The notes under the pieces: generated by a model | What the model was told of the DNA's origin: nothing | What the model saw: only the letters and a program-made list of their open reading frames with translations | Database searches by the model: none | IMG/VR virus record: IMGVR_UViG_3300029873_000376 | Span: 1 to 5,685 of that record | Direction: 5' to 3' (one strand) | Source: a virus | Lineage: Duplodnaviria; Heunggongvirae; Uroviricota; Caudoviricetes | Length of the DNA: 5,685 bases | Shown here: in pieces, positions 856 to 5,685 of the stretch | How positions within the stretch are numbered: the stretch's first letter is position 1 | Layout: every line of letters begins with the position of its first letter | Translations under genes and position numbers: made by a program

Positions 856-919
856 TGAACCATGGCCTCCGGAACAAATAAGGGCAAAAATAACAACCAC
901 TATCGAAAGCTCACAAACT

Positions 920-1089
920 AACCGCAGCACGTTCCTGCATACGACGTGTCTGCGGCATAATCCCAATGATTACTCCCTGACAGGATTTGCAGGCCACTCA
1001 ATATCAGGTGCAGTTGATGTATCAACACGATTCAACAATACCCGATATTTATTCCATGCCTCCAGCAACGATCTTTCTTCCTCCGTTGC
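920..1089. repeat. Direct repeat copy 1 (about 170 bp): 3' end of tfa plus downstream palindromic hairpin
   Basis: Manual alignment of 920-1089 with 1970-2138 gives roughly 85-90% identity at an offset of 1049-1050 bp, same orientation. The two tfa stop codons (970-972 and 2019-2021) are in register. Confidence 0.85.
922..955 (-). terminator. Hairpin 15 nt after the tfa-like stop (minus strand), candidate intrinsic terminator
   Basis: CCGCAGCACGT (922-932) pairs with ACGTGTCTGCGG (944-955), with one bulged T. On the minus strand it is followed directly by TTAGTTTGTGAGCTTT. Confidence 0.4.
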
Positions 1090-1239
1090 GATTTCCAGAT
1101 CTACAGCATCCTGCAGTGGCGCAATATACTCACTGAATTCCTGGATGTAGAACTGTGTGGTGACGGTCTTCCAGCCATTCGGCTCCTGCTGTATCGAAGC
1201 ATACCAGGCTATTTCAATATCGCTATGCTGCGGCAGCAT
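970..1239 (-). CDS. tfa: Short tail fibre assembly (Tfa)-like protein, 89 aa: novel N-terminal about 40 aa fused to the conserved Tfa C-terminal segment
   Basis: The C-terminus [51 protein letters not shown] closely matches the lambda Tfa C-terminus as I recall it ([44 protein letters not shown]). AAGGGG sits 4 nt upstream of the ATG at 1237-1239. At 89 aa it is much shorter than canonical Tfa (about 190 aa). Confidence 0.7.
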
Positions 1240-1295
1240 TTAACCCCTTGTAATTCATCGCCATAATTGATTTAATTCACAAATAAAACTATAAC
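1239..1295 (+). promoter_or_regulatory. AT-rich divergent intergenic region with candidate sigma70-like elements for the methyltransferase gene
   Basis: Candidate -10 CATAAT (1262-1267) with a weak -35 TTTAAC (1239-1244, 17-bp spacer). A second pair, TTGATT (1267-1272) and TATAAC (1290-1295), has 17-bp spacing but would put the transcription start inside the annotated start codon. Consensus matching by eye only. Confidence 0.2.
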
Positions 1296-1964
1296 ATGGT
1301 GAAATCAATGAAAAAAAACACAGATGATGGGGCTAAAATTTACACACCACTTACCCTAAAGCTTTATGACTGGTGGGTTTTGGGAGTATCAAATCGGCTT
1401 GCATGGGGATGTCCTACAAAGGAACACCTTCTTCCACACTTTCTGGAACATGTAGGTAACAACCATCTGGATATTGGTGTTGGAACTGGGTTTTACCTTA
1501 CTCACGTACCTGAGAGTAGTCTGATATCTTTAATGGATTTGAACGAAGCTAGCCTGAACGCGGCATCTACAAGGGCTGGGGAATCAAAAATTAAACATAA
1601 AATTAGCCATGATGTTTTTGAACCTTATCCCGCGGCGTTACATGGTCAATTTGATTCCATTTCCATGTTTTACCTTCTTCACTGCCTGCCTGGAAATATA
1701 TCTACAAAAAGCTGTGTAATACGCAATGCGGCGCAGGCCTTAACTGACGATGGAACTCTATACGGAGCCACAATTCTTGGCGATGGAGTTGTGCACAATA
1801 GCTTCGGTCAAAAACTGATGCGCATTTACAATCAGAAAGGCATCTTTTCAAACACAAAAGATTCCGAAGAAGGCTTAACACATATACTCTCAGAGCATTT
1901 CGAGAATGTTAAAACCAAGGTTCAAGGTACTGTAGTAATGTTTTCCGCTTCAGGGAAAAAATAG
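1296..1964 (+). CDS. Class I (Rossmann-fold) SAM-dependent methyltransferase, 222 aa; alternative start at ATG 1308 (218 aa) with GGTGA 5 nt upstream
   Basis: Glycine-rich motif I LDIGVGTGFY, acidic post-I motif LMDLNE, motif II-like DVFEPYPAALHGQFDSISMFYLLHCLP and motif III-like LTDDGTLY. No DPPY/NPPY or PCQ/ENV motifs, so it is probably not a DNA methyltransferase. Visibly AT-richer than the flanks. From memory, the E. coli K-12 DLP12 prophage carries a methyltransferase-like gene (ybcY) between tfa remnants, which resembles this arrangement; not verified here. Confidence 0.85.
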   Translation: MVKSMKKNTDDGAKIYTPLTLKLYDWWVLGVSNRLAWGCPTKEHLLPHFLEHVGNNHLDIGVGTGFYLTHVPESSLISLMDLNEASLNAASTRAGESKIKHKISHDVFEPYPAALHGQFDSISMFYLLHCLPGNISTKSCVIRNAAQALTDDGTLYGATILGDGVVHNSFGQKLMRIYNQKGIFSNTKDSEEGLTHILSEHFENVKTKVQGTVVMFSASGKK

Positions 1965-1969
1965 CATCC

Positions 1970-2138
1970 AACCGCAGCACGTTCTTGCTTAAGACGTGCT
2001 GCGGCATAATCCCAATGATTACTCCCTGACAGGGTTCGTAGGCCACTCAATATCAGGTGCAGTTGATGTATCAACACGGTTCAGCAACACCCGATACTTC
2101 TTCCAGGCTTCCAGCAACGGAGTTTCTTCCTCCGTTGC
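1970..2138. repeat. Direct repeat copy 2 (about 170 bp): tfa 3' remnant plus palindromic hairpin
   Basis: See copy 1. This copy begins 6 nt after the methyltransferase stop codon (TAG, 1962-1964). Confidence 0.85.
1972..2004. terminator. Perfect palindromic hairpin between the convergent methyltransferase gene and the tfa remnant; candidate bidirectional terminator
   Basis: CCGCAGCACGT (1972-1982) and ACGTGCTGCGG (1994-2004) form a perfect 11-bp stem that can extend to about 14 bp with one bulge. On the minus strand a T6 run lies about 10 nt past the stem (TTGGATGCTATTTTTT). There is no T-tract on the plus strand. Confidence 0.4.
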
Positions 2139-2147
2139 ATATACAGC
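2019..2147 (-). pseudogene. tfa: Start-less remnant of a tfa 3' end (42 codons)
   Basis: Minus-strand translation gives [42 protein letters not shown] then stop (TAA at 2019-2021). An in-frame TGA lies immediately upstream (2148-2150) and there is no start codon. It is homologous to the C-terminus of the 970..1239 ORF. Confidence 0.65.
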
Positions 2148-2157
2148 TCACCTTTTT

Positions 2158-2451
2158 TCACCCACGATTAACCAACAGCCAGACCAGCAGACACGCCACC
2201 ACCGGCACAGCAAAATCCATCAGGCTTGCCACATCCCACGCGCGCGGATCAAAACCGCCCCACCACGGCATATTCATTCGCTTGCCATGCCCGAACATTT
2301 CAATCCAGCGATATTCTGCCTGGGTGTGTTCACGCGCAATGAAGAACGTACAACCAGCTATCGCCCCGTAAGCCCAGTTCCCGGTAAAAAGACCAATCAG
2401 TAGCTGCGCAGCCACAGCACAAAGCGCATGAAGGAAAGGTGTTATATCCAT
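2158..2451 (-). CDS. Hypothetical small membrane protein (97 aa, two predicted hydrophobic helices, Trp-rich linker)
   Basis: Consensus SD AGGAGG lies 4 nt upstream of the ATG (2449-2451) and directly follows the stop of the upstream gene. Hydrophobic segments FLHALCAVAAQLLIGLFTGNWAYGAIAGCTFFIA and ASLMDFAVPVVACLLVWLLV flank a charged, Trp-rich loop. No family recognised. Confidence 0.55.
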   Translation of the reverse strand: MDITPFLHALCAVAAQLLIGLFTGNWAYGAIAGCTFFIAREHTQAEYRWIEMFGHGKRMNMPWWGGFDPRAWDVASLMDFAVPVVACLLVWLLVNRG

Positions 2452-2461
2452 TACTCCTCCT

Positions 2462-3166
2462 TTATCCGATATCGCTTCGGGAAACGGATAACAACTTTAA
2501 TTCTGACTCAAGTTCATCAACTCTTTCAGTCAGCTTCTGGATATGGTGAATCAGTGGAACAACCAGACGTTCGTACATTACACCTTCGGCAACAAGGCCA
2601 TTGCTGGAAATAGCTTCCGGTGCATCATCTTCGTTAGCTGGTCGCCAGTGTACAAACTGAGGGGCAATTTCTCCTACTTCCTCGGCAATCAATCCGTAGA
2701 ATCCCCAGTCACGCCTGTCATTTGCGCATTGTGACCTGTACCACACAGGGCGCATCCTGAAAATGAGATCGGCGTGCTCTGAATCTATTGTCTCTACTGA
2801 ATGTTTATAGCGGATAGACGATGTTGACCGCAGCACAGACGAAATTGCGGGGTCAGGATTAAGATAAAGGTTTGCCGCCGCTGTAGTCGTGCCCAATCCC
2901 CACAAATAAAACGCTTCACGGCCAGTCAACGGGTAAAAATCTCCACCATAACGACCGCTTTCCAGAGCGTTCACTTCCAGTTTGTTTTTCAGCTTATTAT
3001 CAACTTCAGTTTTTGTGTATCTGGTGCTGATATCCTGCTTTGCACTGGTCATATCAGCCTGAAGCGTTGATACTTTTCCGTTAATTGAGGAAATATCTTC
3101 CTTGGCTTTACTGACATCTCCCTTTAACGTGGTGATGTCTCCCGGAATTACTGTCGATGTAGCCAT
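2462..3166 (-). CDS. Tail-fibre-like protein (234 aa) with C-terminal intramolecular-chaperone-like (peptidase S74-type) domain
   Basis: GGGAG lies 4 nt upstream of the ATG (3164-3166). Residues about 112-225 (S-S-I-R-Y-K...ETID...LIFRMRPVWY...WGFYGLIAEEVGEIAPQFV...GVMYERLVVPLIHHIQKL...ELESELKLL) fit the pattern I recall for the auto-cleaving C-terminal chaperone domain of endosialidase-type tailspikes and the T5 L-shaped fibre (S-D-x-R-x-K-x-N-I...L-R-P-V-x-Y...G-F-I-A-Q-E-V...P-E...L-I-x-A-I-Q-E-L). The N-terminal 70 aa are coiled-coil-like with two similar segments (LKGDVSKAKEDISS / LQADMTSAKQDIST). Confidence 0.65.
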   Translation of the reverse strand: MATSTVIPGDITTLKGDVSKAKEDISSINGKVSTLQADMTSAKQDISTRYTKTEVDNKLKNKLEVNALESGRYGGDFYPLTGREAFYLWGLGTTTAAANLYLNPDPAISSVLRSTSSIRYKHSVETIDSEHADLIFRMRPVWYRSQCANDRRDWGFYGLIAEEVGEIAPQFVHWRPANEDDAPEAISSNGLVAEGVMYERLVVPLIHHIQKLTERVDELESELKLLSVSRSDIG

Positions 3167-3175
3167 TTGTCTCCC

Positions 3176-3457
3176 TCACATCCAGCCACGAAGTTGATGT
3201 TCAACTACAACCGCGTATTCATCGAATATTGACGATTTTTTTGCATCATTAATGATGCGCACGTTTACAAAATATCCATCTTCCTTAACACATACCGGTT
3301 CGCCATCTTCAGTCAGTTCTCCGGTTTCTTTGTACACGTTACCTATCACGTCAATAAGAATATCATCCTGCATCGACTCGTCATCATAATAGCCAATGCT
3401 ATCCATAAAGGCCGAAAAGTCGGCCCTGTCTGCAAATTTGAGTGTTAAATCTTTCAT
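3176..3457 (-). CDS. Hypothetical acidic protein (93 aa), translationally coupled to stf
   Basis: Its ATG (3455-3457) overlaps the stf stop codon (TAATG). GGGGGAG sits 8 nt upstream, inside the stf 3' end. Rich in Asp/Glu; no family recognised. It occupies the position where tfa normally follows stf. Confidence 0.55.
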   Translation of the reverse strand: MKDLTLKFADRADFSAFMDSIGYYDDESMQDDILIDVIGNVYKETGELTEDGEPVCVKEDGYFVNVRIINDAKKSSIFDEYAVVVEHQLRGWM

Positions 3458-5685
3458 TAGATTGACTCCCCCATCTGAGCATCAGTCAATGCCTTGTGCC
3501 ATATTCTGAAATTCCTGACATGACCAAATAAATGACGCAACCCGGCTGTAGTCTGGCCTCCAATACGGATAATTGCGGAGTTCTGAATATAGGACCATGT
3601 GGCTTTCTTTTCGCTGGATATACGCCCGTTACTTACTGAGCACGTAGACTGATCTGACTTTACACGCATCCCCATAACCATTTTTTCAAGCGATGCGTTT
3701 TCGTTTACCCGTCTGTTAGCCAAACCTATATCACAATAAGGAAATCCGTCGTAATCTGTTGAACGACCGAAGCCAAGAATAATAGCCGCTCCGGTTTGAT
3801 GACCGCCGGTATCAAAAACACGCGGTGCTGCATTTGGCGTTTTATACCAGTTCTTATGTACCTCACAAAGAACCGTAAAAGGAAGATTATAAAGATTATT
3901 CTTAATTGGAACTGTAACTATATCGCTTGCGCGGGTCGCCGCCGTCGCTCCTGATATAATAAAAGATGATACACAAGGCCCATCTTCTACTTGTGGGGTG
4001 GCCAGATAAATATAGTCACCAGATACGGTTGCCCCGCTCTGCTTAGGAGAATACTGTATCTGAGAGCCTATTTTTAACTCCCCATCAATTGCCTGAATTG
4101 TTGCCTCTGCAAAAATCCATCCGGTAGCTTCGTCCTTTCTGACTCTCGCTGTAATTCTTGAGGCAGCACCGCCTGTCATATTAATTTCAAGCGTTTGTGT
4201 ATCAATATACGCATCACCAAGAAAAGTTGTTGCGCTACCGTCATATTTATCAAACCGGATACGCAACCTTACCTGCAGTTCTGTTTTAAAACGACATGAG
4301 GTTGTCACGTGTTTATTATCGCCTGAGACATCAACTGACTTTGTTGCAGCAATTGATGCCATATTAATGGCTGAGGTTTGCCCAATCAGAGAATCGTTGC
4401 AGACAAACTTTCCATAGGTAAAACCAAAATTATCCGTCCCTGTTTCGGGCACATCCATATTTGACGATCGCCCCCAACTGGCAGGGCTTTCCGAATTGAG
4501 CATGTAGTTTGTTCTTTGCCCCTCAATAAGCAGGCCATCACGTTCAAATCGTGGCTCGTCAATGGCAGCCTCTGTCAGCACACCAGATTTGTTAATATAG
4601 GTTGCTTTCGATGCACGTTTAAACTTAACAATCTTGTCGCCAGGCATCGTTATTTCATCGTCACCAATAACAATTTTTTTATATGATGGCGAAAAGCCCG
4701 TAATCATATCCAGCGAATCGTTAAATGGTATCCACACATCAGGCAGCGGCTGTAAGACATATTTATACGGCTCCGCAGCCTGGCTTGCGTACTCTCTGGC
4801 TGCATCTTCGCTTGCTTTAGCTGCCGTCTGGCTTGCTGCCGATGCTTTCGCTGAGTTCGCAGCCGCTGTTTCGCTCACCTTTGCGTTGGTTTCACTGGTT
4901 TTTGCTGCTTTTTGACTGTTAGCTGATGCAGTGGCAGAAGCAGCCGCCGCGCTTGCAGAACTGGCTGCGGCACTCTCGCTTTGGGCCGCTGCATCCTGAC
5001 TGCTTTTCGCCGCAGTTTCACTGGCTTTGGCATTCGTTTCGCTGGTCTTCGCTGCCGCCTGGCTGGACTTTGCGTTAGTTTCACTCGTCTTCGCAGCTTT
5101 CTGGCTGTTAGCCGCAGCAGTTGCTGATCCAGCTGCTGAAGTCGCAGAACCGGCTGCCGCGCTCTCGCTTTGGGCTGCTGCAACCTGGCTGTTTTTTGCT
5201 GCAGTTTCACTGGCTTTAGCATTCGTTTCGCTGGTCTTCGCTGCCGCCTGTGCGCTGTTAGCTGCATTCGTTTCTGAGGTTTTCGCCGCGTTCTTCGATG
5301 ATGCCGCTGCAGTTTCGGATTTCTTTGCCGCCGCTGCGCTCTGAGAGGCGGCTTCAGCGTTGCGTGCCGCTTCTTCCACCATTGCCTCAAAACGACGCAA
5401 TGCCTCCGGCATGACATCATCTTCCGTCATGGCACCGAGAAAATCATTCAGCGTACCTGGTCTGGAACCTTCATAGACGGTAATGGTTCCGGCATGTGAA
5501 GGCGGAAAACCTTCAACAAGCAGGATAACGCTGTACTGGCCATACTCAACATCCATGCTGTAACGCCCGGCTTCATCCGGATTTTCAGAGGCCACCGTGT
5601 TCACCAGTACCGTGGTACTGTTACGTTTTGCTTTCAGCTGGATTGTGCAGTTCTGTACCGGTTTTCCTGTGCCGTCTTTCAGTAC
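3457..5685 (-). CDS. stf: Side tail fibre protein (Stf-like), 5'-partial: the reading frame is open to the window edge
   Basis: The minus-strand frame is open from 5685 (VLKDGTGKPVQNCTIQ...) through the listed Met at 5604. The N-terminus NTVASENPDEAGRYSMDVEYGQYSVIL.V.GFPPSHAGTITVYE...PGTLNDFL matches the lambda Stf / E. coli prophage side tail fibre N-terminus as I recall it. This is followed by an Ala/Ser/Thr-rich repetitive region and a 440-aa C-terminal domain ending ...LFGHVRNFRIWHKALTDAQMGESI. Confidence 0.9.
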   Translation of the reverse strand, partial: VLKDGTGKPVQNCTIQLKAKRNSTTVLVNTVASENPDEAGRYSMDVEYGQYSVILLVEGFPPSHAGTITVYEGSRPGTLNDFLGAMTEDDVMPEALRRFEAMVEEAARNAEAASQSAAAAKKSETAAASSKNAAKTSETNAANSAQAAAKTSETNAKASETAAKNSQVAAAQSESAAAGSATSAAGSATAAANSQKAAKTSETNAKSSQAAAKTSETNAKASETAAKSSQDAAAQSESAAASSASAAAASATASANSQKAAKTSETNAKVSETAAANSAKASAASQTAAKASEDAAREYASQAAEPYKYVLQPLPDVWIPFNDSLDMITGFSPSYKKIVIGDDEITMPGDKIVKFKRASKATYINKSGVLTEAAIDEPRFERDGLLIEGQRTNYMLNSESPASWGRSSNMDVPETGTDNFGFTYGKFVCNDSLIGQTSAINMASIAATKSVDVSGDNKHVTTSCRFKTELQVRLRIRFDKYDGSATTFLGDAYIDTQTLEINMTGGAASRITARVRKDEATGWIFAEATIQAIDGELKIGSQIQYSPKQSGATVSGDYIYLATPQVEDGPCVSSFIISGATAATRASDIVTVPIKNNLYNLPFTVLCEVHKNWYKTPNAAPRVFDTGGHQTGAAIILGFGRSTDYDGFPYCDIGLANRRVNENASLEKMVMGMRVKSDQSTCSVSNGRISSEKKATWSYIQNSAIIRIGGQTTAGLRHLFGHVRNFRIWHKALTDAQMGESI
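4823..5250. repeat. Imperfect tandem repeat, period about 189 bp (63 codons), roughly 2.3 copies, inside the stf shaft region
   Basis: GCAGTTTCACTGGCTTT(A/G)GCATTCGTTTCGCTGGTCTTCGCTGCCGCCTG occurs at 5012 and 5201. The protein units AAKTSETNAKASETAAKNSQ...NSQKAAKTSETNAKSSQ and AAKTSETNAKASETAAKSSQ...NSQKAAKTSETNAKVSE are near-identical. Confidence 0.8.

Follow-up and report, generated by a model that had tools for sequence, protein, structure and literature searches.

The small S74-type protein analyzed here, which we refer to as orf234, is best explained as a minimal subunit that forms the distal part (or a branch) of a side tail fibre built from two parts, a reading to which we assign a probability of roughly 55%. 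Its gene comes third in the operon stf / orf93 / orf234 / orf97 of a lambdoid prophage, and was considered within a stretch of DNA of 5,685 nt (the window, by which we mean the whole of the DNA that was analyzed). Among the possibilities raised in the original prediction for this protein, that of a very short fibre or whisker is thus favored, as orf234 presents an N-terminal anchor and a gene position that are common to bona fide distal fibres. By position, downstream of stf and orf93 in the operon of the proximal fibre, orf234 would belong to the distal fibres, and the motif of its attachment segment, which it has in common with recognized distal fibres, points to the same membership.

The features of the window are summarized in Table 1. 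The open reading frame of the original prediction, which had been given with no strand, was recovered as such on the minus strand, and the ribosome-binding site ascribed to it was found as well. The sequence of the window is found with 100% identity in the chromosome of E. coli BEC1-S17-ESBL-09, where it belongs to a lambdoid prophage adjoining the trp/yciEFG region. The late operon, on the minus strand, reads gpJ, lom, stf, orf93, orf234 and orf97; the start of stf lies just outside the window, and the encoded protein is 749 aa long in the PGAP annotation. Downstream of orf97 are found tfa fragments, a SAM methyltransferase gene and a gene for a Rha regulator.

Table 1 Coordinates of the fibre operon and of the segments of orf234 in the window (residue numbers are those of orf234).
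Feature	Position	Strand	Description
stf	3457-5685	minus	Side tail fibre (proximal fibre): phage_tail_N N-terminus, Ala-rich shaft, lectin-like C-terminal head
orf93	3176-3457	minus	93 aa, phrog_1361; homologue of IrisVonRoten Gp23
Shine-Dalgarno GAGGGAG	3171-3177	minus	4 nt before the orf234 ATG; overlaps the orf93 TGA stop
orf234	2462-3166	minus	Complete 234-aa ORF with stop codon; PGAP 'tail fiber domain-containing protein', WP_000235977.1
N-terminal anchor MATSTVIPGDITTLKG, residues 1-16	3119-3166	minus	Consensus M-[AV]-T-x-T-x-I-P-x-D-I-x-x-L-K
Heptad coiled-coil stalk, residues 11-60	2987-3136	minus	AF2 helices 11-47 and 52-60
Small non-helical tip, residues 61-115	2822-2986	minus	GDFYPLTGREAFYLW hairpin region and conserved pre-cleavage element GTTTAAAN..LRST; N99 invariant
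Predicted autocleavage site T115|S116-S-I-R119-Y-K121	2804-2824	minus	Nucleophile Ser116 codon 2819-2821; Lys121 codon 2804-2806
Chaperone (Peptidase_S74/ICA) domain, residues 116-234	2465-2821	minus	Pfam match 2651-2821; C-terminal helix 198-233
orf97	2158-2451	minus	97-aa predicted membrane protein, phrog_1443; last gene of the operon

Several observations on the surroundings of orf234 should be mentioned in their own right. The Stf head corresponds to a phrog_1419 domain and is called lectin-like here because the homologous head of IrisVonRoten Gp22 was described as galectin-like (PMC11990801). Residues ~359-559 of the ORF listed at 3457-5604 (minus strand), in the Stf head, match the NCBIfam model NF048003, GTA_spike_fiber (E = 2.8e-13), and this match links the lectin-like side-fibre head to the head-spike fibres of gene transfer agents. 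The Ala-rich Stf shaft ('AAKTSETNAK') contains a 189-nt tandem duplication at 4862-5239, with 80% identity; such length variation would alter the fibre length by 63 residues. Two direct copies of a tfa 3' fragment (140 nt, 91% identical) are found at 950-1089 and 1999-2138, on either side of the SAM-dependent methyltransferase gene at 1296-1964, and are probably scars of successive replacements of the fibre cassette. Finally, orf97 ends the fibre operon in every lambdoid example seen, whether the third gene is present or absent. Its homologue in the phage 21 record is annotated with two transmembrane segments, and orf97 is a possible moron or exclusion gene.

The original prediction had recognized an S74-type chaperone domain by four motifs, all of which are present in the orf234 translation, namely SSIRYK (residues 116-121), RPVWY (139-143), GLIAEEV (158-164) and PLIHHIQKL (204-212). 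The profile search confirms this assignment, with the Pfam Peptidase_S74 model (PF13884) scoring 26.6 bits (E = 7.5e-6) against a curated cut-off of 22 bits, and with residues 116-172 covering profile positions 1-57 of 58. An exhaustive phmmer search with orf234 in 1.84 billion representatives yielded 3458 matches at E ≤ 1e-3 and 1599 at E ≤ 1e-10, nearly all of them via their C-termini. Considering both the Pfam score and the number of phmmer matches, the S74 signal of orf234 is far above chance. When PDB sequences were searched with a profile built from the alignment of orf234 homologues, DT57C LtfA (8hqz) was the sole match. HMMER does not reach proteins as distant as T5 pb1 and endoNF, and T5 pb1 was therefore aligned directly with MAFFT, which placed T115-S116-S-I-R119-Y-K121 of orf234 on T1263-S1264-D-A-R1267-L-K1269 of pb1. 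The alignment matches the two proteins at the scissile Thr-Ser, the Arg at +3, the Lys at +5, the GxIAxE segment and the terminal helix, and the Ser/Lys pair that had been suspected of forming a catalytic dyad (S116/K121) indeed coincides with S1264/K1269. In T5 pb1, the Thr1263-Ser1264 bond is cleaved, Ser1264 is needed for the cleavage and Lys1269 activates Ser1264 (PMC4690869). T5 pb1 is, however, a protein of 1396 aa with a bullet-shaped receptor-binding domain of ~290 residues before the chaperone, unlike orf234, and its Arg1250 and Asp1239 have no obvious aligned counterparts in orf234. Among 19 homologues with 29-95% identity to orf234, the invariant positions are S116, S117, K121, E125, P140, V141, Y143, R144 and the GxIAE segment. 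From these sequences, we infer that orf234 self-cleaves at Thr115-Ser116, with predicted products of 12.4 kDa (the mature chain, 115 aa) and 13.7 kDa (the chaperone, 119 aa). As for the premise of the original prediction that S74 domains are found at the C-terminus of large tailspikes or fibres, the restriction to large proteins is outdated, with many carriers being shorter than 250 aa. A structural class of small fibres in which a coiled coil at the N-terminus is combined with an S74 domain at the C-terminus has, moreover, already been listed (bioRxiv 10.1101/2024.10.28.620165).

The segment preceding the domain, expected to comprise about 110 aa of coiled-coil-like sequence, contains 115 residues, of which the coiled coil accounts for residues 11-60 only, with residues 61-115 being non-helical. 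The coiled coil comprises five heptads and follows a perfect 3-4 pattern, with hydrophobic residues at positions 11, 14, 18, 21, 25, 28, 32, 35, 39, 42 and 46. The AF2 monomer (pLDDT 62.7) presents the two helices of the stalk and a moderately confident alpha/beta domain that ends in a long helix (residues 198-233). At residues 63-123, the pLDDT is below 50 and the fold of the tip is not resolved, as would be expected of a monomer model if the trimer is intertwined. The last ~25 residues of the tip (GTTTAAANLYLNPDPAISSVLRST) form a motif that is conserved across this S74 subfamily, with N99 invariant, which leaves only ~30 residues, between the coiled coil and the pre-cleavage element, that are unique to orf234.

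The same module, consisting of coiled coil, tip and S74 domain, is found as the C-terminal end of long fibres, lambdoid Stf proteins included. The long relatives that carry it, with 50-59% identity over residues ~25-50 to 234, are phage_tail_N Stf proteins, Gp34_trimer-containing fibres and tail-collar fibres, and orf234 therefore looks like a terminal fibre module that was joined to a distal-fibre anchor. Two lambdoid Stf proteins, P0065 (735 aa) and P0067 (958 aa), both with a phage_tail_N N-terminus and an S74 C-terminus, show 57-59% identity over orf234 residues 34/49-234. In these two proteins the module is covalent with Stf, whereas in the window Stf terminates in the lectin-like head and the module is encoded apart from it, as a polypeptide with an anchor of its own. 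This level of identity to the C-termini of other lambdoid Stf proteins is also what one would look for in the remnant of an earlier stf C-terminus considered in the original prediction, which would have been left to decay after recombination replaced the distal part of stf. The end of P0067 (...KRVDELESELKLLSTSRSDIG) is almost identical to that of orf234, and genuine tfa remnants are located just downstream.

The distribution of the gene, nonetheless, makes decay highly improbable. In complete E. coli genomes, the gene was found in 746 of 5426 (~14%), and in 740 of these carriers at least 80% of its length is retained. E. coli B is one of the carriers, where the gene belongs to a DLP12-region prophage adjoining appY and ompT; in E. 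coli B-ZidR, the entire stf/orf93/orf234/orf97 cassette is found in the DLP12-region prophage (positions 868-4509 of locus L011). As E. coli B is a laboratory lineage, orf234 can thus be had from a standard strain. Protein clusters at 90% identity comprise 2928 and 650 member sequences. The reading frame is intact in all six alleles compared (94-100% nucleotide identity to the window gene), and their mean dN/dS is 0.15 overall, with 0.21 for residues 1-65, 0.13 for residues 66-115 and 0.12 for residues 116-234. Neither truncation below 80% of the length in 740 of the 746 carriers nor frame disruption or relaxed selection in the six alleles was thus seen, and the pseudogene and recombination-remnant candidates were rejected. 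The gene also possesses its own start codon, its own Shine-Dalgarno sequence and a dedicated N-terminal anchor, and full-length orthologues (55-64% identity) are kept in the compact genomes of lytic Drexlerviridae. As a description of its present state, the remnant is therefore dismissed, although the idea does hold some truth in evolutionary terms, given that P0065, P0067 and other lambdoid Stf proteins end in this module.

The genes around orf234 can be compared with those of other phages. The order of a fibre gene, a gene for ~93 aa and a gene for an anchor-bearing S74 protein is found in lambdoids (PhiR49_1 and PhiR63_1), in Drexlerviridae (KarlJaspers, swan01 and SLUR29), in Queuovirinae (JenP2) and in T5-like phages (mar004NP2 and IrisVonRoten), and the fibre genes that stand in this conserved order with a third gene encode the same C-terminal head. 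The third-gene products are 221-234, 346, 348, 574 or 589 aa long. All of them start with M-[AV]-T-x-T-x-I-P-x-D-I-x-x-L-K and end in a chaperone domain with S-D/S-x-R-x-K, with bodies that are otherwise unrelated across the size classes. We surveyed 80 IMG/VR loci with an orf93 of the window type, of which 77 were assessable, and an anchor-bearing third gene was present in all 77. Two forms dominate in these loci, that of 234 aa (35 with exactly 234 aa, ~44 when length variants are included) and that of 346 aa (23 with exactly 346 aa, ~26 with variants). Phage 21, on the other hand, has a Stf head that is 72% identical to that of the window, followed by orf93 and then directly by the 97-aa gene, with no third gene. 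The same was seen in the IMG/VR loci of the phage 21 type, where the third gene is absent and orf97 comes directly after orf93 in 47 of the 47 that could be assessed. Between the window and PhiR63_1, the Stf heads are 98% identical and the third genes unrelated (31%), while between the window and PhiR49_1 these values are 56% and 95%. Stf-head and third-gene alleles thus, by these comparisons, reassort independently.

The junction downstream of the third gene was also compared. In PhiR63_1, a terminator-like GC-rich hairpin followed by a T-run is located between the third gene (a 346-aa allele) and the 97-aa gene (positions 2450-2520 of locus L002), whereas in the window the spacing from orf234 to orf97 is only 10 nt and includes an AGGAGG site. 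The 3' junction of the third-gene slot therefore differs between alleles.

The closest described counterparts are the fibre genes of IrisVonRoten (Bas32, Tequintavirus; Gp22/Gp23/Gp24) and of mar004NP2 (gp053/052/051), where the gene order is as in the window, that is, a proximal fibre with a lectin or galectin head, a protein of 92-93 aa and a distal fibre. In the BASEL paper, Gp22 of IrisVonRoten is the proximal fibre with the galectin-like head, and Gp24 was modelled as attached to it, as a 'T-shaped' distal fibre that carries a chaperone domain in addition to two receptor-binding domains (PMC11990801). Gp23, with 92 aa, is a homologue of orf93. Gp24 starts with MVTKTVIPTDITKLK, as compared with MATSTVIPGDITTLK in orf234, and ends in a self-cleaving chaperone domain. 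The two proteins differ in what lies between, as Gp24, with 574 aa, carries gp12-like and T5-like receptor-binding domains, whereas orf234 has only the coiled coil and a tip of ~50 residues. The phages differ as well, IrisVonRoten being T5-like and the phage studied here a temperate lambdoid.

The Drexlerviridae proteins of 221-231 aa (KarlJaspers gp35, PeterMerian, SECphi27 and Jahat_MG145) are true orthologues, with 55-64% identity over the full length, and match orf234 in anchor, coiled coil, tip, catalytic Ser/Lys and gene position. Their genomes are those of lytic T1-like phages, and they are labelled 'putative lateral tail fiber chaperone' or 'chaperone of endosialidase'. These orthologues add breadth but no functional support. 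The branched LtfA/LtfB fibres of DT57C are, like those proposed for the window, multi-protein lateral fibres, with an S74 chaperone on each subunit (PMC4728585). The N-terminus of DT57C LtfB (MSRPLMPKSG...) is, however, unrelated to the orf234 anchor, and no orf93 homologue is found between ltfA and ltfB. Although mar004NP2 gp051 has been called an ltfB orthologue (PMC6563131), it resembles the distal half of DT57C LtfA, and we dropped the label 'LtfB-type' for the anchor on these grounds.

Taken as a distal subunit, orf234 would be produced and assembled as follows. It is translated from the third position of the stf operon, as the sequence shows. By homology, the S74 chaperone (residues 116-234) is expected to align three chains, templating the short beta tip (residues ~61-115) and the coiled coil (residues 11-60). 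Once folding is correct, Ser116, activated by Lys121, would cut the Thr115-Ser116 bond, as suggested by the conserved catalytic residues, and the chaperone would be discarded. This would leave a trimer of the mature chains, for which we estimate a length of roughly 10 nm. The anchor, of ~15 residues, may then dock this stub on the distal end of the lectin-headed Stf, possibly via the 93-aa protein; synteny, the shared anchor and the published model of IrisVonRoten Gp22/Gp23/Gp24 all suggest such docking. The stub would extend or cap the fibre and, more speculatively, may touch a conserved structure of the host surface. Conservation of the anchor might, in part, be explained by a function as a recombination linker instead of by docking. 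The publications found on orf234 or on stand-alone S74 proteins of T1-like and lambdoid phages comprised annotations and structure-atlas mentions only, and when the records of swan01, SLUR29 and mar004NP2 were searched for proteomic notes, only the proximal fibre of mar004NP2 was found to be marked as MS-confirmed.

Another possibility of the original prediction, a chaperone acting on another protein, would make orf234 a trans-acting assembly factor that is not part of the virion, with its S74 domain or coiled coil helping the lectin-headed Stf to trimerize. Such a role is what the BASEL records imply when they label the Drexlerviridae homologues 'putative lateral tail fiber chaperone'. It would also fit the gene content of the window, where Stf has no S74 domain of its own and no intact Tfa gene is found, only tfa fragments downstream, as well as the size of the mature part (115 aa), which is smaller than the chaperone part (119 aa), and the tip, which is conserved rather than hypervariable. 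We nonetheless consider a role in trans to be unlikely. Phage 21 is functional with a homologous Stf head and orf93 but, as in all 47 related IMG/VR loci, no third gene. A dedicated chaperone is expected to co-vary with its client, but head and third-gene alleles reassort, and larger proteins that are clearly fibres use the same slot and anchor. The S74 domains characterized so far act in cis, on their own chain (PMC4690869), and orf234 showed no match to Caudo_TAP or any other such chaperone family in Pfam, NCBIfam or PHROGs. The phage 21-type cassettes that do without the gene, and the reassortment of alleles independently of the Stf head, both disfavor this possibility. From the evidence against a role in trans, the GenBank label 'putative lateral tail fiber chaperone' therefore appears to be derived from the name of the Pfam domain.

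The 93-aa protein should be considered separately. At least six phage groups are represented in the 181 phage records where a gene of the orf93 family (phrog_1361) directly follows that for a lectin-headed fibre. No Pfam or NCBIfam match was obtained for orf93, and the NCBIfam search likewise yielded nothing for orf234 and orf97. The subtype of orf93 tracks the presence of the third gene, with 77 of 77 loci for the window type and 0 of 47 for the phage 21 type, and shows no such relation to the Stf head. Judging by this pattern, orf93 may serve as an adaptor or may act in assembly independently of the head, and the tracking itself could reflect either an adaptor role or simple linkage. An AF2 model of orf93 (pLDDT 53.4), obtained from a shallow alignment of sequences with at least 86% identity, was judged unusable.

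The size and conservation of the tip bear on what a distal subunit of this kind would do. A unique part this small, under purifying and not diversifying selection, is atypical for a glycan-specific receptor-binding tip. Given the small conserved tip, a purely structural cap is thus a serious variant of the main explanation, albeit one that we hold to be possible rather than probable. As such a non-binding cap, or 'blank' allele, the cleaved stub would dock on the fibre end and have no receptor of its own; it would either stabilize or terminate the proximal fibre, or fill the docking site, leaving adsorption to the lectin head alone. The ~30 unique residues, the low dN/dS of the tip (0.13) and the alternation of the 234-aa form with the 346-aa allele on the same orf93/Stf background are all consistent with a cap. 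The same small tip, however, ends the long fibres P0065, P0067, P0071 and P0072, which suggests that it is a functional fibre end by itself, and fibres of the phage 21 type need no cap at all. In a further form of this idea, which we regard as rather doubtful, orf234 would be a 'blank' self-cleaving module that caps the docking site to which the Stf end and orf93 both contribute and alternates with receptor-binding alleles (those of 346 aa and larger), by which phages would toggle recognition. As the orf93 subtype tracks the third gene perfectly, it is orf93, rather than Stf, that would then be the universal adaptor, and the exchange of a single-gene cassette would toggle between recognition by the lectin head only and recognition of two receptors.

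Self-cleaving, chaperone-bearing subunits of distal fibres are already known, and among these orf234 is unusually small, common and mis-annotated, and is not conceptually new. The finding leaves the concepts of the field unchanged. The gene is, nonetheless, also found in many T1-like phages of phage collections, and its database labels are inconsistent ('tail fiber domain protein', 'chaperone of endosialidase' and 'lateral tail fiber chaperone'). Its annotation as a chaperone would be corrected by viewing orf234 as the minimal allele in a distal-fibre slot that undergoes exchange. If so, it would also be a very small scaffold for fibre engineering, with a 15-residue anchor, a coiled coil and a folding domain that removes itself, and the slot would define a portable three-gene cassette for host recognition in lambdoid, T1-like, Queuovirinae and T5-like phages.
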